From: Raillietiella orientalis
Taxonomy: Eukaryota
Length of the DNA stretch: 64,000 nt
Reading direction: 5' to 3'
Assembly (NCBI GenBank): GCA_036172245.1
Contig: JAYWIR010000001.1
Span: 6,324,001-6,388,000, forward strand
This document shows, one piece after another, positions 30,151 to 49,631 of the stretch. Position numbers and translations under genes: made by a program. The first letter of the stretch is position 1. Each line of letters begins with the position of its first letter. The notes under the pieces were generated by a model. It was not told the DNA's origin. It was given only the letters and a program-made list of their open reading frames with translations, and made no database searches.

Positions 30151-31414
30151 CCTAAAATTTGTGGGATTCCTCGACTGAGTCATTCCATTAAGAATGACAC
30201 TGAGTTTTCAGGTTGAAATTCTATGAAAATGGCAGCTTTTTCCTGTGGACACAACCTTCTTGATGAGCAGGGAGTAATTTGTATCCTGAAATTTCCCTGA
30301 AAACTTCTGCAGCGTGGTTTCTTAGAGACATCCCTTTTGAAGAATAGAAAGCAAATTTGCAAAGCGCATCTCAGGATTAATTTTTTTTTCTTGTTCATCA
30401 GTCTGCAGATTCGTCTGAAGCCCAGGTTGGACGCCACGGTTTATGGGGAAAGAAAAAATTCGTTCACGTCCTTTTCCCTCCATCGCTTGCGTGTGTCACC
30501 CGTGTGATGTAACCGATCTGTGGATCTCCGCGGACCTCGGCTTACACCACGAGGGCTGCTCAAGAGGGTAATTGATTTACTGTTGGGCAGGGCCGTTTGC
30601 TCCCCCCTCCACCAAAACTTCAGCTCGAGTCCATGCACGGGGCATGCCCTCAATTACCGAGACAAGATGATCGTTTCGTCACTTTCGAGTGTACCCAACC
30701 CGATATGCTCGCCGCCTACCCCGTAAGCCCTATGCAGACCCGTTTTTGCGAGGAGCACTTTACCCAACGGAACTGCTGAAGGAGAGGAAATGAGTGTTCA
30801 TGAATTACGACCGACCTCATGGAAGCTCCCAATGCATCCGCTGCAACGTGTAGAGCTTAAATATACAGCAACCTTCCCCCCCCTCCCCCCCACGCCAGCG
30901 ACAGCACAACGGATTTTCTTTTTCTCTCCCCCCCCCTTCCGCTGAAGAGACCCACTTTGTACGGAAAATGTGTGGTCCCCAGAACATATGTATACGGAAA
31001 ATGCTCCAGTGCACAACACATTCGATAATAGGGCGATTCCCCCCCCCCCACTGGCTGCGGTAAATCCGAGTTTAAAAAAGTTGTCTTCAAAGCCCGACCG
31101 GGATCTCAACTTGGCCAGGAATTGCTGGGGTCCACACAGCATGTGTTTTTGCGTTTGGCTTCCCCACGTCCAGGCACGTAACGGTTGAACGTAGAGTTTC
31201 AAACATGGTAGGGTCGGAGGAGGAGGAGGAATTTTTTTTTTTTCCCCTCTCTTTCTCTCTTACATCCCCCCCTCCCCCTCCCTTCCCTCCATTTTTTTGA
31301 AAGTTTTTTTCGTTTTGCGTTTTGTCATCATGCCGAGCGTAGAATACGTTTTATTAACTGGCGGGAGACAAATGCCCCCACCAATGCAAGCATGTTGTGT
31401 CTGATTTAAGGAAC

Positions 31415-34400
31415 ATGGGCGAAGTTGAAATCCTATCAGAGATTGTTCCCGCCCTGTATTTGGGATGTGAAGAAGATGCACTGTCCGAGAGTCAAATCAG
31501 AGCAATTAAGAATTCACGTGCACAGTTCAACAAGTTTCAGACCCTCTTGAAACTCACGTATTTACAAAAGGATGATAAACTCAAAGTGGAAACTTGTTCA
31601 GCGAAAAGTTCTGTAGAAGTAAGAGTACTTTGTGATTCCTAATAATAACATTCTTATGTATAATGTCTCTAGGAAGGAGAAAGTCTCAGTGATAGTGGGA
31701 TACTTTGCCATCTCCTGAATGCTTCTGGTACGTTTTCTTTTAATCCTCAATCACCATGTGCTTGGTTCTCTTGCAATTTAAAGCGAAACCAAGTATCATA
31801 CAAAGAATGGGCATTCGATTTTAGATTCAGAAAGCCTCGTAGTTTGTGTTTTTGTGGTGCTTCTGTTCTTGTATGTTTCGCACTCCCGTTGTAATCGTAT
31901 CGTGTTCGAAAAATGATGAAAAATTAGAAAAGTCAGTTGAAAATAGAAAGCAGTGCTTCAACAAACTGTTTCTGTTTCATATCAGGACAATCCAAAAATT
32001 CAGCACCTTCACAGCTGTTGAGTTCTCATACAGGAAGTGGGAGAACACTCTCAACCAATATGGTAAATAATCTGAAATTTGATTCTTTGTATTTTGTATT
32101 GCTAGCCTGCATTGATTAAAATTAAATCAAAAGAACAAAAATCTGCAGTTTCTTTGTCCAATGTTAAACTTCTAAACCCCACTGTCACTCTTCCTACTTC
32201 TGGTGAAGTATCTGTTCTGAAACCCATTTCATCTTCAGCACAGAAAGGTAGCTGAATAATTTGTTGCAATATGTAATGTACTAAAGGAATATTGGCAGTG
32301 TACGTGCATTCACCTCATCAAGTGTACATTAATGTAGCTAATGCTCCACCGCTGTCATCAAACCTGGCAGTTTTATTAAAGGAATGCCCAATCCTGCTTA
32401 CCACACCCAGAGCACAGAAGATGGCTTCTGGAGATTCCACTTCTCGTCGAACTGAGCTTGGTGAATACAAGCCTTGTGAACTCACTTTCACATAATTTTG
32501 CTGCATAGATGCCTTCATTAAGAGTAAATTGGCATACAAGCCAGATCAGCTAGTGGAGTGGTTACTGAAATCAGGCCTCATCCGAAGCAAACATCGCTGT
32601 CCAGATCATGGCCGTTACATGCAGTTGGGATGGCAGCAACAGTCCATGGAGGACAATGGCAACTATGTTTGGATGGCCAAGTGCTGCTCCCAGCAACTAT
32701 CAGTATTTCAAGGCTCCCTGTTTGAAGCTGTCAAGACATCACCCAAAAATGTCATCAAAATGATATATCATTGGGCTTGTCAGACACCTGCTACAAATGT
32801 TTCCTCGTGGGTGGGCATTCCCTTGCCAGAGATTGCGCATTTTTATATTGTGATGCGATCCGTGTGCTCCCGTTCTCTTCAAGAATTGCTTCCCAAGCTA
32901 GGTGGTCCTGGGTGTTGTGTAGAGCTAGGATTCTTTACTTTGGGATGCACAAGTGCTGAGAAAGGTCGCCAGCGCAAAGTGGATATATTGGGCTTGTATG
33001 ATCGTACTTCTGGTGTGTACCGATTCTGTGCAGTTTCCCCAATTGCCTATGAGAGCTTGCAGAGCATTGCACCATTGCTTCTGCATTTGCCCAGGCTACT
33101 CAAACCTGGATCCATTATTTCTATTGATCCATCTTTGCACCGAGATGCATTGCAGAGCTATGTTTCAAAGTTAGCCCTCACAGTGAGAGAGTCTCCAGCT
33201 CATATCCTCCCAGCCAATCGAGCCAATGCAACAATTATGACTTATTTGACAAAAGTTATACCACGTATCTTTCAATACAATTTGGGTACACTCACCATCG
33301 ATGATATCCAATCTTTTCTTGATGAGCTGTCCTGGAGAGAGCAGTGGGGATTTTTGCCTGCTGATTCATACTTCAATATAGTGGATCAAGTAGCTAACTA
33401 CATGCGCACCAATCAAGGTGATTTTGTCATGTTTTTCTGGTAAAGAAAGTGCATATTCAGATTTGGGTCCAACAGTAGTTACAGTAGAGCAGAAGCCAAA
33501 TGCAGAACTGACAATCAGTGCTGTCATAAAAGAAAAAGGTGATGTTAAACTATCCAACCACCAAAACTCATCCCGACATGTCCAAATGAAGGTAAATGTA
33601 GAAGACTTTCTAACTCATTGCACTTGTGTTAGACTTTGGTTCCAGTTCATCCAGGAACAAAGAAACGAGTGGCTAGTGGTAGCAGTCCCATGAATCCATC
33701 CAAGCGACCTTTATTGAATCCATCCATCAGTTTGAGTTCTTGTGCTAACCTGGCACCTTCTGTTGAGACTGTGGCACTGGAATCTTATTATTATGGCACA
33801 ATGCCGGGTAGGGAAAATCAGGCAGTGGAATGCTTTGGCCCCTTTAAGGTAAGAGTGAAATCACAGAAGCTTCCTCAGAATTTGCCTCCTGTAGTGCCAC
33901 CTCTGCTCCAAACCTTTCACCAATAACATCCAGTTTATGTATCATATCCTACGTCATCTGGAAAGTTCTCACTCTTGCACTACTCAGTTGGGTCAGCTTA
34001 CCCAGTGTCGCTATTGTTTAGATACTTTTGCTACACCATATGCTATGCAGTGCCACATTGAGGAGCGGCATGAAGGCCGTGGTTTCATTTGCCGTATCTG
34101 TGAAGTGACCTTCAAAGAGAAGCATTTACTGTTTACACACATGAATGCTGTCCACGTGGCACTTGAGTTACCTTATGTGTGCCACCTGTGCTCATACCGT
34201 TCTTCACAACATTGTCAGGTGATAGATCACTTCCAGGAAATGCATAGTGGCTCGGATGTACTTCAGTGTCATCTCTGTTTGAAATTAATCAAAGCTCACA
34301 CGCCATATCATTTCATAAGCCATTTACAGGTAGGTCTTAAAAGCTGAGGTTTTCCCTTATGATGTGTTTTTCAGCGTCATAGTCTCAGGAAAAAAGAGAG

Positions 34401-35223
34401 TAATCGGTATAGGTGCCGGCGCTGTTGTTTGAGATTCCTGAGTGAATGTGACATGAAAGATCATCAAAAGCACCATGCAAGTATGAAGTTTGCCCCTGGT
34501 GTGATTCCTTGCAACGAGCATGACCCCATATTGATGCCCCATCCTCTTGCTGAAAGTGCTGCTCAGGTTCCAGCACCACTACCACCACAGCAGCCTCCAG
34601 TGGTTCATTCTTTGTATTATAAGGTGTGTTCTCTCGAGCATGTGCACCTGCTTCGTCAGGAGACGTTTACATGTTGTGAATGTGGTCAGGTGACAGATAG
34701 TAAAAATCACTTTAACGCTTTATGGAGTTGTGCCCATTGCTGTTATCAGACTAGCTGTCACCTTTCTGTGACCAGGCATGTGACTCTTTGGCACAGCAGT
34801 AAGAAACTGCAATCCCGACAGTTTAATAATCTGTTCCCCTCCCCTATGTATTGTGTCTGTGGTTTCCACAGCTCCTCCGGTGATGCTTTGAGCAAACATT
34901 TAGTGTATTGTGGTAGAAAGACTTGTTATTCCAGCGAGTTGCATGTGCATGAAGCAACAAAACTTCATTCGGCCACGTTTCCACCTTTGGTGACTTTAGA
35001 TGAAACAGACGACCCCAGCAGCGAGTGGCTGAAGGCATTTTATGCTCCCAAGGAGCCATTGGGCAAGCAAAAATCCAAATCTGCTTCATCACTGAGCAAC
35101 GAGGAGTCGCCAGATGTGTTGAACCAGCTAGGATTGGTACGCAAGCCTCACGAGGAGGAGAGCACGATCGGTCGCCTGCTGGATAAAATACTGATGCAAG
35201 TCGAGTGCCAGTTGGAGAAATAA
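31415..35223 (+). CDS. POGZ/ZNF280-family (Row-like) C2H2 zinc-finger chromatin protein with an internal Merlin/IS1595-like transposase-derived domain (10 exons, 1063 aa)
   Basis: Exons 31415-31618, 31673-31727, 31986-32062, 32106-32247, 32287-32460, 32509-33417, 33461-33591, 33633-33848, 33895-34329 and 34375-35223, all phase-consistent. LYLGCEEDALSESQ resembles POGZ LFMECEEEELEPWQ; ESYYYG resembles DDFYYG; CHLCSKPFTNNIQFMYHILRH resembles [21 protein letters not shown]; also CRYCLDTFATPYAMQCHIEERH and ELPYVCHLCSYRSS. Confidence 0.88.
32509..33417 (+). other. Exon 6 of the POGZ-like gene: domesticated Merlin/ISXO2 (IS1595-family) transposase-like domain
   Basis: EWLLKSGLI..CPDH...W..KCC..LSVFQGSLFE, an HTH-like segment, KLGGPGCCVELG (Merlin IGGPG..VEIDES), ILGLYDR, LKPGSIISID (I.PGS.I.SD) and IQSFLDELSWRE (L..YLDEF.WR). 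Confidence 0.75.
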
Positions 35224-35248: not shown

Positions 35249-38200
35249 TTATTTGTGTTTGCTTGAAGGACCGGGGCTCACTGCTCGCACTACTTCTTTA
35301 GCTACACGTAGGCCCTCTTGCAAAAGGATTTCTTCGTTACACTTGTTCCAGTTCGGTGGAGAGTTGGGGCTTACTGGTGAATCTGAGTTGTCCAAGCTGA
35401 AGTCTTGCGCGCGGAGAAGAGCTCGTTGTTCCAAAAATAACTGTGCTTGTCGATTCTGAACGTTATGAAGCTGCTGCTGTAAACTGTTAAGCGCAATGAG
35501 ATCGTGGCACCCCCTATAATCGTCCGCTTTGTCTCGCAACTCTGCCGCTCTCTCAGCATAACTGCGTAAGTCGAATGCAATTTGTTCTAGCCGTTGCTGT
35601 CTATCTCTTTTTCGAAAAGGAATTTTTGCATCTCGGTCACCTTCTTCAAAATCAAGACGTACTCGCTTTTCGTTTTCCATCGCTTCCTCAATGCAATTGA
35701 GCAAACGGCCCGTCTGCCCCCGAGAGTGGCCTTTGGAGTACTGGTAACCGGATTCCCTCACGACCTGCCGTGCCAGCGGAAACAGTTCGTCTCTCCTGGT
35801 GAGCAGAGCGGGCACCAACCGGCAGATCTGTGCAGCAGCTTCGTTCACGGACACCTAGATCTGCTGGTCAAGACCAGTGGTCTGGGGTTGGGATCGGGTC
35901 ACCTCATGCAGAGTCAACGGCTTTTCAGCGCGACGCTTACAATCAAATCGTCCGTAAATTGCGGCGTACTTGCGGATTTCATCCATGCGGTGAGGGTCAC
36001 TGTCAGGCATTTGAATGATATGCTGCAACCCGCCGTACAGAGGAAGCTGTGCTTGCGGTCCGCATCCTTACCTCTAGGTCTTTGGAAATCCTCCGCTTGT
36101 TGGGTGCCTTGGGTTCGAACTGAGGAAGCGTTTTGACCAGATGCTGTGCAGCATCAGCCAGCCGTTGTATCTGTGGCTCCAGTAGGGCTGGTGTTAGTTG
36201 AAGAGGAGAACCAGGTCTGCTGTAGTAAAGCTCATGCGACTGTAAGTCCGGCATAGGAGCACGAAGTGATTTTTAGCTTACCTGCTGCCGAACCGGGGAA
36301 AGGGCACCGTCGTCTTTTTCGCGGCTGATCGTGGGACTCGGAGTATGAACTGGCGATAGCTGTGCAGACGGAATAGGACTGACACAAGAAGCGGAAGTAG
36401 AAAAATGCAACAAGCGGTTTCCTCCAAACAAAGAAATGCTGTTCCCAAGAAGGTTGGGGATCAACGGTGTTTGGAACGGCGCTGAAATACACAAACAGCA
36501 GTGTGAATGAAATTACGCAAATTTACTTTCAGGTACGGCGTCCCTGAACACACACCTCCGCGAAAGGGGACAGCAGCTTGATTGCTCAGCGCCTAAGATG
36601 TCGAGAGCCTCGGTTAAGATCGCCAGAGGGATTTTTTTACGGCACTTTTACAAATGCACTACTGCAGAGACAGCGCATCGCAATCTGCTCCCTTCAGCAG
36701 GGGCGCTTTGCATCCCTTGGAGCCACGCGAGAGCGTCTTTTCCAGTTGCACATTCATCGGAGATGAATAATGATGATAACCGGCAAACCCTGGTGCGCGC
36801 CGCGTGGCTCGCGCATCGAATCGCGCAAAATTCTTCACCTGCAGAAGAGTGCGTGTGGGAAGGAGGGGTGGGGGTGGGGGGGGTTAAAGGGTGGTTGGTG
36901 GTGCCGTTTGGATTCAATGAAAAATGTTGCTGCGCGATGGACAGAAAATCATCGGAAAAAAAAAAAAAGTAACTGAAGAGTATCGCCCTCTACCGCCCGA
37001 TCTACAGCGAACCGAAAGGATGCACAAGGTGATCCCATTCGCGGCTCCTCTTCCAGTATGTTCGGGAGCATGCGGATGGTTTCCGGCAACCATCGACATT
37101 CGCGTGAATGAGAAGGCGCATCCGAGAGAGCGGCAGGAAAATGGCAATGTGCAAATCGGAATGGCGCGCCCGCTGTGAGACGGGAGATCCCCGAGTCTCA
37201 CGTTCTATCCTCCCCCCCCCCCCCGGCCCATTCCACTCCCGCCTCAGTCTGCTCACGTCTCGTCGCCGATTCCCGGCCTGCAATTCTAAAAAGTTCCGTT
37301 TTGATGTGTACTTTTGGGCCCGATCCCGATGGGGAAAGCAAATAATATACTTTCTTTTTCCTTTTTTTTTTTTTTTTTTTCCAAAAAAAAAAAAATTCCC
37401 GAAACGGACGAAAAAACCGTTTGGCAACGCGTTCGTCTGCATCGCTCGGCGGAGGAGCCGCCGCCATTCCGCCTCGGCGCTTCCTGTCTGCCGGTGCGAT
37501 TGACAGAGCGTTCCGCGGCGCTTCTCGTTCGCAATCTTGTTTGTTTGCGTTTGTGATGAAAGAAAGAATTCCGATTCCTCGTGCAATTTGTTTTGCTTCC
37601 CTTCTTTCCTCCTCCCCTTCCTCAAATACCGTTCCGGGAAGAGCGCGCTGCCTCGCGCTTTGTTTGCCACCCGACCTACTCCGAGGCAAGCGGTTCGGCT
37701 TGCAGCCTCCCCCTCTCTTTTTTTACCCCCCTCCGCCCCTCCTTGCATCGCAGTCGCATCGGCCCTCCTCTTCCAGGAGGAGGAAGACGACGAGCAAAGC
37801 GGTGGTTGCGTCCGGCACGCTTCGATCAACCCTTATCCATCCTGTTGTCACTTGATGGCGCCAGTTCAAATCCTGGTGCACACAGCTCCGATGCAGCGGG
37901 CAGCACGCAGCGCAAGACCCCTCCTCTTCCCCCCCTCCTGCTGTCTGAGGATCTTTGGCCTCCACGAGTAGAGGCAGCAGCGGCTTCTACCCGATCGATA
38001 TCTACCATGGATGTGTTTTTTTTTTTTTGGAAAAAAAATAAAAAAAAACATCCCCCCCCCCGTCACGATCTCCAAGTTTCGGGGCTCGCCTAACGAGTTG
38101 TTGAGCCTGAGTATGCGTGTGCATGTGTGTGCGTGGGGGGGGGGGGGGGGGCAGCGATGACTCACGCTCCATTCCCGACGTGACCCACGGCGAGGGAAGT

Positions 38201-41200: not shown

Positions 41201-44200
41201 GGTCGGACAAGCACAGCCCGGGGAAGGCAACCACCCAGCTCTCGGGCGCCACCAACCCTCTGCGGGGTGAGTCCGCCAGCAGCCGTGTCGAGCCGCGCGC
41301 CCCGAATCGCGCGCTTCACCCCTCTCCAGAGGATCTCGCCCTTCGGCAGGGGCGACTTGTAGAGGGTCGCTCGTCCTGCGACAGTGGAGCTTCCTTCGCG
41401 GCACTTTCGCTGCCAGCTCCCCTCCCTCCCCCTCTCCGGAGCCCACGCTAGGTCTCGGGAGTCGAGCTTGCTCTCTCCAGGTCCGCTCCGAAACTGCCTG
41501 CAAAGCGCGCTGCGTCAACATCTTGGGGAAGCCTTGGTGTTCCTGGAAGAAAGAGGGATTCCGGCCGTTCCGGTTTCCGCAACAGCGAAGGGAAAGCAGG
41601 AAGCCTCGGGAAGCAGCCCGGCCGTTTCTGCGAGCGAACGCTCAGGAACGGGAACCGGGAACGCTCGCGTTGCGTAGCCGTCGCGTGACCCGGAGGCGAA
41701 AGCGACACACAGGGCACGCTCCTCTTCCCTCCTCTTCCGAGAGCTGCCCTCCCCGAGGGAGGACACGAACAGCAGCCTTCCGGCTAGATGGGAGGTCACT
41801 GTGGAAATCTCCGGAAGGAGAAGAGGACGACTGGGAGAGTGGACGAAGGGACAGCTTACAAACGCTGCGACCCCAACTTCCCCATCCCGAGGACTTTTGC
41901 GCTGCGGCGAACTGCTAGAAATTCAGGAGGAAGACCTGCAGTGGCCCCCAGTTCTCTCGGACAGCAGCACCCTCCCCTTAAAGTGGCCGCAGTCGGCGAT
42001 GCTGCTGCTGCACTGGGGTCCCCCGTGCAACGCCCGCCAGCATCGCTGGCCACGGGTGTGTTTGGGAATCCGAACCGCGGCAGGTGCGGGGAACGTGAAT
42101 CCCTCCCGCACTTGCAGGTGGACTGTGTTTCCCTCCGGCCCCTTTGGGGACGCTTTGCCGCGACTCTAGGAACCCCTCGGCGACAACTCCAGGGACGCTT
42201 TACGACCCCTCCTCGCACGCGACGCGCTTCGGCCAGCAGCCTCGCTAGCAGCTCTCTGAGCCACGCTGGAGGAGGACACAGCGACAGGGGTGCCACATCC
42301 ACTCTGCCGTCCTCTTCACGAGGATGGCAACAGAATGGCCCCACCTGGAAAACATCATGCAGCAAGAGCTTGCCGGCATCCTGAAGAGGATGCAGAGGAC
42401 CGCCCCCAGCAGGACGTGATCCTTTCTTCCCCCTCCCCCCCTCAGATCTATTTGTTTTCATTTTTGCTTGCCCCTTCCCATCTGCTGCTGAGGCGACCTC
42501 AGCGGTCTACGTCCCGGCCACTCGGCAGTTTCCTTTGGAAATGAACGTGATTTTGCAGAGATTGTGGTTGTTTATTTTATATGAAATAAACGCCCTGGCG
42601 CCTCCGGGTGACCACCCCCTCTTCTTCCTCGAGAGAGACGCGTTTGCCGGTCGGTCGGAAAACCGCAAGATCAAAGGCGAGAAGACACAGAGCGGGAGGG
42701 CCGTTCCTTTATCAAGTATCGCTGCAAGAACCGCTCCGGATGCACTGGATGAGGAAGGGAGGGCCCGAAAGCGCTACGCCTGGGCCCTTTCGGGCGCGGA
42801 AACGCTTGGCTCCTGGGTACAGGGGAAACAGCGCCGCCGAGAGGGCGCGGTTCGTTTTCCCGCGGGGAAACGGCGCACCCGTGCTCCTTCGCACGTACCT
42901 TCGGCACGTCCGCTTTCCTACCGCGGTGTTCTCCGGGAGGGAACGGAGAAGAAGCAGGGCAGGAGGAGCCAATACAGCTCGCGTAGGTCGGAGAGGAAGA
43001 GCCAGCAAGCCGCCGGAACAAAAGAAGTCACCTGGATTCTGCAGCCACTCCTGCAGCGCCTTCTGTAGCCGTCGCACGTGGAGCGGTTTCGAAGCCATCC
43101 CGACCAGCGACATGATCTCCAGGAATTCCTCCTCCCCCGCCTCACACAGCTGCTGCACGTCGTCGCCTCCTGGACAGAGAAACGCCGGGCTGAGTTCAAG
43201 AGCGGAGCGCGGCTCCTGCGAACACCCCACCTCCTCCTCCTCCTCGGTGTCCTCCCCCCTTGCGCCCAGCTGCGGCTGATGCTCGCCCGCGCGGAAGGAG
43301 GGGGGAAGGCAGAGAGAGGACGGAAGCGAGGCGAAGAGCCGTGCGCGCGCCCCGATGTGTCCCACGGAAGAGCCCGGCGGAAAACGGGATGCCAATCGCG
43401 ACGGGACCACCGCCTCCGGGAGTGATAGGGGGGTGGGCGCCACGCGCTGGGATGGTTTCGAGGACGAGGGGGTCATCGGTGCGAGTGACGCACGCGGGAG
43501 GAGGAGGGAAGAGTCCTCCTCTTCCTGGCGGATGGGAAAGGAAACGGCCTCCGCGCGAACCTGGCAGAAGGTGGGTGGGGTGGTTGGGTGCGAAAGATCA
43601 GAAGGGATCGTTGCGAAATCCGCTGCGATCCCCGCGGGAGAGGGGGAGAAGAGAGAGAGCGGGAAGGGCGCGCCGGCCTGTATATGCGCGGAGTCGGCAT
43701 GAGGGAGGGGAGGGAAGACGGAAGTCCCGTAGGCGCAGCACCCCCCACCCCGCAGAGGTGTCCGCACGCGGACGGACACGTGGCGGAGGTGCGCTCCGGC
43801 CGTGAGGGCTGAGGGGGCGGCTCGGTTGCCTCCATAGTGCCCCCCCCCCCCCCCGGCTGCGGGTGGGCGGCGGCACGTTCGCGGAGCGTCTGAGCCGCCG
43901 CTGGAAACCGAAGCTGCAGACGCAAGACCCGCAGGCGGCGGCGGCGGCGGCGGTTTCCTTGGAAACGTTCCGGCTCGACGGCGCGGTCGCAGGTGGTTTC
44001 TTCTCCTCAAGCCACGCCCCTCGCTCCTGCGTCGCCGAGCAGAAATCGCGAGCACCCCCGTACCGGGGAAACCGGGAAAGCGATCCTCGGAGGAAGGGTG
44101 CATGCAGCACGCATTAGCTTCCTTCGAAAAACATCAAAGAGAAGAAAGGAAGGCGGAAAGGAGGACCAAGAAAAGTGCAGGGGAAGGGAAGTTTTGCTTC

Positions 44201-47200: not shown

Positions 47201-48422
47201 GGAGCGTGGAAGACGACCTACGTCTCTACACCTGCACAACCGTCTCCCAAGACTGGAGAGCAGTCAAGCAGGCAATGGACATGCAAGGGCGGTCCGGAAT
47301 CAAGATCTTTCGAAGACTATTCCAAGGACACAAAGTCATCCCCCTGCACAACTCCACGTTGACGGAGCAAAGCTTGGACAGAGTACTCAGCAGGTTTCCT
47401 TCAGGGCCTTCTCGAGAGAAAGAGATGGGCACACGAGTACTGCGGCAGGGTGCCAGCTTGGACTATAAGCCACACCCTGCGAAAGATCGAAAGCGCAGAA
47501 CAGCAACGGGTAACAACGAGAATAGGAAACCAAGGACCAAAAGTGCTGTGCGGCGCTTTGTCCCTGGTTTCCCCGTGTAAAAGCCGTTGCGCCAGCTACC
47601 TGGACCTCAAACCTGCGCGCGCCAAAGACACGTGCAGCATAGCCTCGGGAGGCACATCTTGGCAAGGGGGATTCGCGTGTGGGTGCTGGAAGACGCAGCT
47701 CTTCCCTGGAAATGAGGTGTGCTTTTCGATACACGAACGTGTGCAGGTAGGCGCACCGCCCCTCTGCTGACGCGGGAAGGCGGCAGCAGGCCTGGCGCCC
47801 TCGAGGGAAGCCTCCCTCGTATCGAATTCGCAGGAATGGAAAGCGGCGGAGCTGGGCAGCGGGAGGGCGCGGAAGTCGACTGCGAGGCGAACAACGGGCG
47901 GGCAAACGCGAGCGGAAGGAGGAGGAGGAGGGAGAAGGGGGGGGGGACGGCGCTCGCTCGCACGGACACAACAAGGGGAGCCATTGCCGTCACCGTCGAG
48001 GGAGAGCGAGGCGCTCCGCCGCCGCCGAGCGCGGTCACGTGGTACTTCCGCCGCCCGAACCCTCTTTCTCCTCCTGGGGACGGAGCCCAGCGGGAGGAGG
48101 ATGGGATCGGCCCCACCCGGCCTGGCGCACGGCGGCGAGGGCGAGCCGCGGGCAGCGAGGAGAGCGTGCGTAGACGACGACGCCACAGGACGTGCGCGTC
48201 ACGCGCGCCCCCCGCCGCTTGGAGACGCTTCTGCGCGGTCGTCCTCTCCCCGTTCCGTTCCGCAAGGCGGAGCAGAGCGAACGAAACCACGTGGGACAGC
48301 GGCAACAGACCAAAGGCGTCCTTACCGTGGCTGATGAAAGTGTCGTAGTAGCTGAGGAGGTTCGCCCTTTGCAATATTCTGTACAGCTGCAGCTCGGATT
48401 CGTTGGTCGGCTGAGCGGTCAT
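35249..48422 (-). CDS. nab: NGFI-A binding protein (NAB) transcriptional co-regulator, 6 coding exons, at least 442 aa
   Basis: Exons 48422-48326, 43169-43032, 36481-36282, 36239-36072, 36022-35903 and 35854-35249. NCD1: [68 protein letters not shown]2: [35 protein letters not shown]...[21 protein letters not shown]. An acceptor at 48428-48429 implies a further upstream exon. Confidence 0.95.
41800..42612 (+). mobile_element. 5'-truncated non-LTR retrotransposon, copy B, antisense in NAB intron 2
   Basis: Decayed zf-[30 protein letters not shown] and C-terminus [28 protein letters not shown] (stop 42419), homologous to copy A EWTHLPEDVGSEISGIHRRF*. The 3' end is AATAAACGCCCTGGCGCCTCCGGGTG. 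The 5' boundary is approximate. Confidence 0.8.
44215..44575. repeat. Purine-rich (A/G) low-complexity tract
   Basis: About 360 bp dominated by A and G on the + strand, which is a long polypyrimidine tract on the NAB sense strand. Confidence 0.8.
46960..47580 (+). mobile_element. Degenerate non-LTR retrotransposon ORF2 C-terminal fragment, a different family from copies A-D
   Basis: LACGE, a frameshift, then [20 protein letters not shown] resembles a decayed zf-RVT (CxxCG..E...H....C......W). The AATAAA-hairpin end is absent. Confidence 0.4.
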
Positions 48423-49631
48423 CGAGACTGGAAGAGCAGAAAGTGAGAACGCATGCCGTGGCGCGTCCCAGGCGTCTCGGGTTTCCACTGCGAAGGCGCG
48501 TCCCTGGCGGTAGGTGGCGGCGACCCCGCGCCGCGGGCGCCTCGCATGATGCTGCGGACGGCGGCGGTCTTGCGGGAGGAAAGGCGGCGACGGCGCCGAG
48601 GAAGACGCCGCGTCTCGCGGACCGAGCGGGGGCGCGCACACGCCGGCCAAGAATCGGCCCCGCGGGGAAGAACGGAAAATTCGTGAAACCCCCCCCCCGC
48701 GTGGGGGGGGGGAGAGGCACTACGAGGACTCGCCGCCAGACGCTGCCAATCCGTTGGCGCGCGCGCGGCGGGGCGGAAGGCTATCCACCACAGGCAGGGG
48801 AAGGGTTTGCCGGGGGTCTGCTGCCGCAGGCGCGTGTACGGACGGTCCCGGGAGCAGCGGCGATCAGCACGCAGAGGCGCTCCTGGCGTTTTGAGTTCCT
48901 GGGGCAGCAGCAGCGCGCGCGGCGGTGACCTTTTCCATGTGGGAGGGAGAGGCAGGGGGACTCTCTTCCGCCCCTCCGGTGCAGCCGCCCCCGTTTCCTG
49001 GACGACGACGCGGCGGTGCCGCGGTCAGCTGTTTCCCGTGGAGACAGGCGGGCGACCGACTCCCGCGGTCGGCGAAGGGCGAGGACCGTTCCCGAGGTGT
49101 CTCGGAGAGCGAGAAGAGGAAGATGCTGGAGGAGGAGGAAGAGCGACCGAATGCGAGGTGGTGCCGGCTAGCAGCAGAGAGGGATCGCGTCGCGAGGGCA
49201 TTGGCGAAGAGACACGGCGGCCCCCGAGGGGGTGGACTGCGCTCCCCGGCGACCTTCCCGGCGAGCGGGCGCACGGGACGGACTCACGGCGTTGGTACTC
49301 AGGGGATCCCCCGAAGAGGAGACCTCAGGCCGAAGATGCGCCTCGCGCAGGACTTCTTGCTCCCCGGGAGTGGTCGGGAGAGTGCCGACACACTCAACCG
49401 GGGGGGATCTCTTGGAGCACCTCCTGCGGAGTGCCCTTACTCGCTCTGGAATGGAAAGTCCATCTGAGAGGTCGGTCCAAAAGAGGAGGAGGACGCGCAC
49501 CCATCCAGGCACGAGAAGAGGCGCTGCAACCCCGCGCAGCTGAGGAGGGGGGGGGGGAGAGACTGCGATGACGTTACGAGGAGAGCGGAGACGAGGCGTG
49601 TAGTGCAGCTTCGGAGGTTCTTGCAGCTCAC

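Follow-up and report, generated by a model that had tools for sequence, protein, structure and literature searches.

A probable IS1595/Merlin transposase-derived domain in the ROW protein of Raillietiella orientalis and other arthropods

Drosophila ROW (relative of woc) is described as binding AT-rich promoter DNA via three AT-hooks and as having HP1c, HP1b, WOC and BEAF-32 as its partners at promoters (10.1101/2021.03.08.434270; PMC9724677), and WOC is described as interacting with HP1c together with ROW (10.1101/2021.03.08.434270). In the parts of these two accounts that were available, as with every source cited here, the portions of the protein that are described are the AT-hooks, the fingers and a Gln-rich tail, and the ~300 residues between them go undescribed (10.1101/2021.03.08.434270; PMC9724677). 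ROW has been called the ortholog of POGZ, and heterochromatin (HP1) proteins are named as interactors of both (PMC9724677). Vertebrate POGZ combines a finger region with a complete C-terminal pogo (Passer-type) transposase, consisting of HTH_Tnp_Tc5 and DDE_1 with a conserved DDD triad, and this pogo part is reported to be a vertebrate acquisition (PMC7386202). WOC and the ZMYM proteins carry a dead, ancient Crypton tyrosine-recombinase domain (DUF3504) fused to zinc fingers, an arrangement reported to be bilaterian-wide (PMC3212892). For Merlin elements, the available part of one survey gives only candidate domestications or chimeras, namely in Stentor, in Perkinsela and in a DDE-WD40 protein of C. 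brenneri, with row unmentioned (PMC8101967).

Here we describe a gene at positions 31415 to 35223 on the plus strand of a 64-kb stretch of contig JAYWIR010000001.1 from Raillietiella orientalis (the whole analysed stretch, 64,000 nucleotides, is called the window below). Sequence comparison identifies it as an ortholog of arthropod row (relative of woc, CG8092), and we consider it highly probable that its exon 6 encodes a complete IS1595/Merlin transposase which was captured before the chelicerate-mandibulate split and has been kept as a folded, inactive module. A sequence-only reading of the locus had proposed a POGZ/ZNF280-type finger gene fused to a Merlin/IS1595 transposase; the observation is confirmed and its interpretation supported, the gene being pan-arthropod row and not a local novelty. 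The row gene itself is already known, and domesticated transposases fused to host transcription-factor scaffolds are well known as a kind. What appears to be new is the identity and origin of ROW's most conserved domain, together with the pairing of one scaffold with two transposases in two lineages. Our literature search, which had most subscription journals outside its coverage, found no link of row, CG8092 or POGZ-like proteins to Merlin, IS1595 or an RNase H-like domain, and DDE_Tnp_IS1595 and POGZ co-occurred in it only as unrelated table rows.

The protein encoded in the window shares with Drosophila ROW an acidic N-terminal motif, the ~300-residue domain, a YYYG box, a C2H2 array and a POGZ-like double finger, all in the same order; unlike the fly protein, it is short (1051 residues) and has neither a GRP-type AT-hook nor a fly-type Gln-rich tail. 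Among ROW orthologs it differs in its unusually diverged domain and in keeping a PPLVTL motif that is absent from the holometabolous proteins checked. In common with vertebrate POGZ it has the C2H2 array and PF25429, so that in both cases a finger scaffold is fused to a DDE-type transposase; here, however, the transposase is of the IS1595/Merlin and not the pogo type, is found on the N-terminal side of the fingers and no longer has the first Asp. Compared with Merlin/IS1595 transposases, exon 6 is colinear over the full length and shares GGPG..VE, the SD/TD motif, the N..I[ME] helix, [YF]LDE..WR and the RNase H-like core, but it lacks the DDE triad (G140/D206/T244) and flanking inverted repeats, sits inside a host gene and falls below the PF12762 cut-off. 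Its ~300-residue relatives of eukaryote type have a CxxC...C..C ribbon, of which the copy in the window keeps part only. In WOC and the ZMYM proteins, too, a transcription regulator with zinc fingers carries an ancient recombinase domain without catalytic activity; theirs, however, is a tyrosine recombinase, unrelated in fold and superfamily to DDE enzymes.

Homology, fold and catalytic residues of the exon 6 domain

When the 302-residue exon 6 peptide was searched with phmmer against 1.84 billion representative proteins, we obtained 382 matches with E<=1e-3, 102 with E<=1e-10 and 44 with E<=1e-30, and the best 150 of the 382 were inspected. One class of match consists of arthropod proteins of ~1000-2100 residues that are 32-41% identical over the whole peptide. 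In these long proteins the ROW-type domain lies ~250-650 residues from the N-terminus, and PF25429 was found downstream of it in all four that were scanned. The best match overall is a 708-residue fragment with 60% identity. The other class consists of ~300-residue proteins (E 1e-11 to 1e-7), twelve of which align over nearly their full length, and PF12762 (DDE_Tnp_IS1595) scored above its cut-off in 12/12 tested, with E values from 8e-11 to 1.5e-25. One of these small proteins represents ten near-identical copies, each on a separate contig of 0.85-11 Mb; by its copy number it looks like a multicopy eukaryotic element. Comparison by hhalign of a profile of 54 ROW-type domains with a profile of the 12 transposases, both taken from this one phmmer search, gave a probability of 99.94 and an E value of 1.2e-36 over 276 columns. 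A protein-language-model search returned arthropod clusters first (0.97-0.96), followed by bacterial ISXO2-like clusters carrying PF12762 (0.95-0.94). Searched by sequence against solved structures, the exon 6 peptide reached a best E of 0.23 with no IS1595/Merlin relative found, and the best match of the A1 profile (E 0.011) was a C2H2 protein matching flanking columns. Within the window, the row locus was the sole tblastn match to ortholog queries. No inverted repeats flank exon 6, since none of the eight pairs found there had arms outside 32509 and 33417. The features of the domain, all on the plus strand, are as follows:

32509..33417, plus strand: exon 6, the entire IS1595/Merlin-derived domain (phmmer, hhalign, AlphaFold2 model)
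32511..32891, plus strand: N-terminal third, a beta-ribbon (C30, H33, C58 and C59 as possible ligands of zinc), then helices (YHWACQT...NV..W) (AlphaFold2 model, alignment)
32892..33374, plus strand: RNase H-like core, domain residues ~128-288 (VIA-align, Foldseek)
32928..32930, plus strand: Gly140, aligned with the first catalytic Asp (alignment)
33126..33128, plus strand: Asp206, the second catalytic Asp, kept (alignment; absent from the sequence-only reading)
33240..33242, plus strand: Thr244, in (MAFFT) or beside (hhalign) the column of the catalytic Glu (two alignments)
33315..33341, plus strand: FLDELSWRE, counterpart of the transposase YLDEF.WR (alignment)

An AlphaFold2 model of the domain, computed from a 51-row alignment, has a pLDDT of 94.3 and a pTM of 0.90, and proceeds from a small beta-ribbon through helices to an alpha/beta core. 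In VIA-align comparisons the core matched retroviral integrases (6rwl_A with Z 10.9 and a root mean square deviation of 3.5 over 128 aligned residues; 1asu_A with Z 9.9) and transposases (Hermes, Z 9.6; IstA, Z 9.3; Sleeping Beauty, Z 7.2; Mos1, Z 7.0). Z>=8 was reached by fifteen chains, the TnsB core being among them, and the core of avian sarcoma virus integrase was matched as well. Foldseek returned 78 matches with E<=0.001, headed by retroviral integrases, IstA and ISCth4. A profile and structure comparison had been suggested together with the original proposal of a ~300-residue IS1595/Merlin domain N-terminal to the fingers; the PF12762-bearing matches, the hhalign result and the RNase H-like fold all bear that proposal out. 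Because sequence homology and fold agree, we take the exon 6 domain to be by descent a full-length member of the IS1595/Merlin lineage, despite missing the Pfam threshold.

Columns corresponding to functional residues were counted in a 66-row MAFFT alignment comprising 12 transposases, 49 mandibulate-type and 5 chelicerate-type ROW rows. The transposase motifs GGPG..VEIDES, SD.W.AY, HTN.IE..W and YLDEF.WR correspond in the window to GGPGCCVELGFF, IISIDPS, NATIMTYL and FLDELSWRE. The substitutions singled out in the sequence-only reading are all seen here: VEIDES has become VELGFF, with Gly140 replacing the first catalytic Asp, and N.IE..W has become NATIMTYL, with Thr244 in the Glu column; YLDEF.WR is kept, as that reading also held. 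The first Asp is present in 11/12 transposases and in none of the 49 mandibulate-type or the 5 chelicerate-type rows, these 54 rows having G in 45 cases, A in 4, S in 3 and C and E in 1 each. The second Asp is found in 10/12 transposases, 48/49 mandibulate-type and 0/5 chelicerate-type rows. In the third column, Glu occurs in 11/12 transposases, Glu or Asp in 35/49 mandibulate-type rows and Glu in 1/5 chelicerate-type rows. The earlier view that the domain is catalytically dead is well supported, the first Asp being gone from 54/54 ROW-type rows.

The zinc-binding part, which had been considered retained, is so only in part: where the transposases have four Cys, the window has C-H-(A)-C with a neighbouring Cys. 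These four zinc-ribbon Cys (CxxC...C..C) are present in 12, 12, 12 and 11 of the 12 transposases and are nearly intact in the chelicerate-type rows. At the same positions, 36/49 mandibulate-type rows, the window included, have C..H...CC (C30, H33, C58 and C59 in the window). In 13/49 mandibulate-type rows the first ligand is not Cys, and the ligands are absent in a copepod-like group.

We also obtained a two-copy fold of the domain of the window, which scored 0.58, above the mark set for the tool, the best of 3 controls scoring 0.01. In calibration this mark is reached by 21/30 solved one-chain pairs and 0/23 solved single chains; for eukaryotes it is reached by 17/29, and by only 1/7 among those without an older solved relative. 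At least 89% of the contacts were common to the runs, with a partner pLDDT of at least 82. The predicted interface involves residues 91-96, 163-168 and 233-256. Of these, 91-96 and 233-256 coincide with two conserved surfaces that are specific to ROW, namely YHW.CQT..NV..W in the helical region and the IM.YL..[IV]P..FQ helix that replaces the Glu-bearing helix. The prediction supports self-association of the exon 6 domain, though it may also reflect the model's memory of integrase and transposase dimers.

Gene model, finger scaffold and surroundings

Joining stop-to-stop open reading frames (ORFs) via nine GT..AG introns gave a 10-exon model on the plus strand, from the ATG at 31415 to the stop codon at 35221-35223, with an open coding sequence of 3156 nucleotides (1051 residues). 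Eight of the nine introns are 41-75 nucleotides long and one is 258; those flanking exon 6 measure 48 nucleotides on the 5' side and 43 on the 3' side. In addition to exon 6, the model contains the following exons:

31415..31618, plus strand: exon 1, from the start codon onward, holding the conserved acidic motif ALYLGCEEDALSESQ at 31451-31495
31673..31727, plus strand: exon 2, linker with predicted boundaries (GT..AG, open frame; no conservation for comparison)
31986..32062, plus strand: exon 3, linker with predicted boundaries (GT..AG, open frame)
32106..32247, plus strand: exon 4, linker with predicted boundaries (GT..AG, open frame)
32323..32460, plus strand: exon 5, ending RRTEL(D) and running into exon 6 (junction-spanning R..LD.K.K in orthologs)
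33461..33591, plus strand: exon 7, linker, poorly conserved, its donor and the next acceptor picked by frame alone
33633..33848, plus strand: exon 8, ending with the YYYG box upstream of the fingers (model and ortholog alignment)
33895..34329, plus strand: exon 9, C2H2 finger array (zf-C2H2_4, E 1.4e-7; finger patterns)
34375..35223, plus strand: exon 10, with the last C2H2 finger, the POGZ-like double finger, the PxVxL-type motif, LGLVRKP and the stop codon

Four of the junctions (5/6, 6/7, 8/9 and 9/10) are backed by homology. The motifs R..LD.K.K, YYYG...KC..C and HLQ[RK]H cross junctions 5/6, 8/9 and 9/10, respectively, and are kept in orthologs, and intron 6/7 needs to be removed because the helix that closes the domain would otherwise meet a stop codon at 33441-33443. 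The two junctions on either side of exon 6, 32460/32509 and 33417/33461, had been marked for checking; both have GT..AG ends, keep the frame and are used by the model. The boundaries of exons 2-5 and 7 were chosen from GT..AG ends and an open frame, these exons being poorly conserved linkers. An earlier model of 1063 residues agrees with ours in locus and in these two junctions, but not in length, the gap of 12 residues lying in linker exons 2-5 or 7. Exon 6 is a symmetric 1-1 exon with phase-1 introns on both sides, as is expected for a transposase ORF spliced into a host transcript.

The finger scaffold proved to be of the POGZ/ZNF280 type, as originally read, with PF25429 above its cut-off downstream of the C2H2 array. 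The C2H2 fingers, in exon 9 and at the start of exon 10, give the zf-C2H2_4 match and comprise eight finger-like patterns. Two features of exon 10 are of particular relevance:

34666..34782, plus strand: POGZ-like double zinc finger, PF25429 (E 2.3e-7, 31.6 bits, cut-off 27)
34984..34998, plus strand: PLVTL, a pentapeptide of PxVxL type with acidic residues after it and a candidate site for binding the HP1 chromoshadow domain (motif scan)

The absence of a C-terminal pogo/CENP-B region, also part of the sequence-only reading, was upheld, with no Pfam match to DDE_1 or HTH_Tnp_Tc5 (pogo/CENP-B-type) in exons 9-10. There is moreover no space for such a domain, because the stop codon of a convergent NAB gene (35249-35251, minus strand) sits 25 nucleotides downstream. 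The C-terminal motif LGLVRKP matches orthologs that end at the same place. At the other terminus, exon 1 gave no Pfam match; the motif L.LGCEEDALSESQ is conserved among arthropod row orthologs, and ALYLGCEEDALSESQ aligns to their L.[LM]EC.EE.LS..Q. This acidic motif may resemble the N-terminus of vertebrate POGZ and ZNF280. No GRP or RGR AT-hook motif occurs in the 1051-residue model, and because a GRP-type AT-hook is lacking, another part of the protein must supply targeting in this lineage.

PxVxL-class motifs bind HP1 chromoshadow domains. The longer form FPPL[VI][TS][LI][DE][DE] is present in 7/22 orthologs checked, including those of Ixodes (a tick) and of hemimetabolous insects, and in none of the holometabolous ROW proteins checked; its carriers are P0001, P0305, P0019, P0012, P0326, P0309 and P0307. 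The motif may be an old HP1-binding site that was replaced in flies.

The gene downstream is represented closest to row by its last coding exon:

35249..35854, minus strand: last coding exon of the convergent NAB (NGFI-A-binding) gene, encoding NCD2 (PF04905, E 8.9e-20)

NCD1 of NAB is split over two ORFs on the minus strand, 42712-44133 (E 7.6e-27) and 47607-48719 (E 1.5e-11), and the NAB introns span kilobases as opposed to the 41-75 nucleotides of eight of the nine row introns. Because the tail-to-tail stop codons are 25 nucleotides apart, the 3' untranslated regions of row and NAB must overlap. In 2-kb bins, the GC content is 31-42% at 8-30 kb, 43-48% over the row gene and 57-69% at 2-8 kb and over most of 38-64 kb, with 54-59% in some bins past 52 kb. 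The GC-rich parts contain long ORFs in all six frames, 8/10 of those tested being without a Pfam family and the other two being the NAB NCD1 exons. Homopolymer-rich, low-complexity DNA (G/C and A/T runs, read as poly-P, poly-G and poly-K in several frames) occurs at ~30800-31350, directly upstream of the row start codon, and at ~36900-38100, within the NAB intron region. A tRNA scan of the 64-kb window found none.

Orthology, age and conservation of the fusion

The names under which related proteins were deposited point to row. Those of Chironomus, Drosophila kikkawai and D. virilis are called 'row', those of Musca, Haematobia, Arctopsyche and Anticarsia 'relative of woc', and those of Tribolium and Leptinotarsa 'row' or 'relative of woc'. 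Outside the insects, the copepod Lepeophtheirus has 'POGZ' or 'CG8092-like', and the ticks Dermacentor and Amblyomma have 'row' and 'relative of woc', respectively. The expectation that related arthropod proteins would already be deposited was correct, most being uncharacterised entries. A fusion peculiar to this genome, in contrast, has to be given up, since the gene is the known row and the fusion goes back at least as far as the arthropods themselves. A query with the Rhagoletis domain gave 316 proteins with E<=1e-3; among the 120 listed, 112 carry a precomputed PF25429 and none PF12762, so that routine annotation misses the domain across the ROW family. A direct Pfam scan of D. kikkawai row likewise gave no PF12762.

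The domain and PF25429 occur together in the chelicerates Tachypleus, Limulus, Centruroides, Ixodes, Dermacentor, Amblyomma, Rhipicephalus, Ornithodoros, Larinioides and Parasteatoda. A query with the Tachypleus domain returned 13 proteins, and 10/10 with a source name were chelicerate, in a search too insensitive to prove absence elsewhere. No non-arthropod ROW-type members were found in searches that were unable to see weak ones. With the transposases as the root, a quick maximum-likelihood tree gathers the ROW domains into a single group (SH-aLRT 100), within which 5 rows make up a chelicerate-type clade and 49 rows a mandibulate-type clade (support 97). The domain of the window falls within the mandibulate-type clade, without a supported sister. 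Dating the fusion by its homologs, as had been proposed, shows the domain at the same protein position in insects, a copepod, horseshoe crabs, a scorpion, spiders and ticks. Because of this shared position the Merlin capture predates the chelicerate-mandibulate split, and a single capture before that split is the simplest reading of the sequences.

Several ROW-type proteins depart from this common architecture. Many chelicerate and beetle ROW proteins (for example P0010, P0138, P0082 and P0323-P0332) carry an N-terminal THAP, a transposase-derived DNA-binding domain, which the ROW protein of the window does not have. Extra, fast-evolving ROW-type paralogs with long branches were seen in Nilaparvata (P0074, P0081) and Rhynchophorus (P0039). 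Some long predicted proteins (P0057 and P0067 of the krill Meganyctiphanes, and P0087, P0092, P0117 and P0118) contain 2-3 PF12762 stretches and a recombinase zinc ribbon, and look like tandem Merlin-type copies merged by gene prediction.

Between D. kikkawai and Periplaneta row, the domain is identical at 213/309 positions (69%), the finger array at 67/206 (33%) and the region around the POGZ finger at 37/90 (41%). The transposase-derived domain is therefore the best-kept ROW region among insects, its identity exceeding that of the finger regions. A comparison of row with the copepod protein gave 147/306 identical positions in the domain and 59/205 in the fingers. Insect domains are 64-71% identical across insect orders, and that of the window is ~35% identical to them; its finger array, at 30-42% identity to insects, behaves much like its domain. 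With respect to the nearest relative, P0001, the domain is 59% and the fingers 63% identical. The open frame and the confident fold prediction argue that this is a fast-evolving lineage and not a case of decay.

Alternative explanations, possible mechanism and significance

A number of observations weigh against the interpretation of exon 6 as an old, inactive transposase module in ROW. The exon 6 peptide itself has no Pfam match, PF12762 not being listed even at E<=10, and among six ROW-type proteins scanned this family was seen in one (P0010; E 0.0022, 18.4 bits, cut-off 27), with nothing in P0003, P0007, P0019, P0001 and P0221. The two profile sets aligned by hhalign are non-independent samples, because they come from a single search. 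The splice junctions in R. orientalis rest on sequence and homology only. The branch leading to the domain of the window has a length of 1.78 (median 0.42), and this long branch, together with the ~35% identity to insect domains, makes weaker constraint than in insects possible in this lineage. The third catalytic position is alignment-dependent, because in hhalign the transposase Glu is paired with the conserved Met that comes before. Most insects keep the D and E/D of the second and third positions, so that their residues leave some residual metal binding possible. Thr244 lies on the two-fold axis of the predicted dimer, and the predicted interface may not carry over to insects because this position is acidic in most of them. 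Finally, the published DNA-binding mechanism of ROW relies, in the available part of the account, on its AT-hooks (PMC9724677).

Three other explanations have to be set beside it. It is conceivable that exon 6 is an intronic Merlin transposon copy wrongly joined into the model of a finger gene, as the whole domain is contained in one exon whose junctions were placed in this species by sequence and homology. In orthologs from insects to ticks, however, the domain lies between the same flanking motifs, and motifs cross both exon 6 junctions; the flanking introns are merely 48 and 43 nucleotides long, the catalytic Asp is lost and 0/8 inverted-repeat pairs flank the exon, which makes a misjoined copy hardly credible. 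As another possibility, the domain might have stayed enzymatically active, working as a nuclease or recombinase with an altered active site. Such a role would agree with the intact fold of the AlphaFold2 model, with the second Asp in 48/49 mandibulate-type rows and with an acidic residue at or beside the Glu column in 35/49 of them, but 54/54 ROW-type rows have another residue, usually Gly, in place of the first Asp, the second is found in 0/5 chelicerate-type rows and the window has Thr at the third position. We regard continued enzymatic activity as very improbable.

The remaining alternative concerns not the nature of the domain but its age: a Merlin-derived domain may have been ancestral to ROW, POGZ and ZNF280 and then lost in vertebrates, which would subsequently have gained another transposase, so that the two lineages would not represent independent captures. 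The domain is at least pan-arthropod, the finger scaffold with PF25429 is common to vertebrates, and our searches were blind to weak non-arthropod relatives, given that the best 150 of 382 matches were inspected and that an insensitive word-based search gave 1 protein. Nevertheless, every source-named ROW-type protein is from an arthropod, and the report of the POGZ pogo part as a vertebrate acquisition is, in its available part, silent on an earlier Merlin domain (PMC7386202). We therefore consider a common ancestral domain unlikely. Capture of a Merlin transposase on the arthropod side, before chelicerates and mandibulates separated, remains the explanation that we favour.

According to this explanation, an ancestral Merlin/IS1595 transposase with a zinc-ribbon-like N-terminus, a helical region of DNA-binding type and an RNase H-like core would have been built into row. 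The resulting domain would no longer cut DNA and would serve as a binding module instead. The YHW.CQT..NV..W region and the former Glu helix, IM.YL..[IV]P..FQ, may then allow the domain to pair with itself, to contact DNA or to bind a partner, for instance WOC. Vertebrate POGZ would have gained its pogo transposase separately, at the opposite end of the same finger scaffold. We infer that capture by the one scaffold was independent in the two cases, from the differing superfamilies, the opposite scaffold ends and the reported vertebrate acquisition of pogo (PMC7386202). It is tempting to go further and to suppose that the dead Merlin domain is the functional core of ROW; that retained self-pairing and DNA-holding underlie the long-range promoter contacts reported with BEAF-32; that two domesticated recombinases, a Merlin DDE domain in ROW and a Crypton tyrosine recombinase in WOC, form the centre of the HP1c-WOC-ROW complex; and that the scaffold needs a transposase for its function and for this reason took one up on two occasions, from Merlin in arthropods and from pogo in vertebrates. 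As a whole we hold this extended proposal to be doubtful.

ROW is a studied chromatin factor of Drosophila and serves as a fly model for the human neurodevelopmental risk gene POGZ. The IS1595/Merlin identity provides the undescribed region of ROW with a fold, with surfaces that can be tested and with an origin. If it is without earlier report, it would add one more old domestication in animals, and this in a superfamily whose only cases, in the available part of one survey, are candidates (PMC8101967). It would also be a clear example of a single finger scaffold fused, in two lineages of animals, to transposases that are unrelated to each other. Overall, the result obtained from this locus transfers to a tractable and disease-relevant fly gene, and is directly testable in flies.

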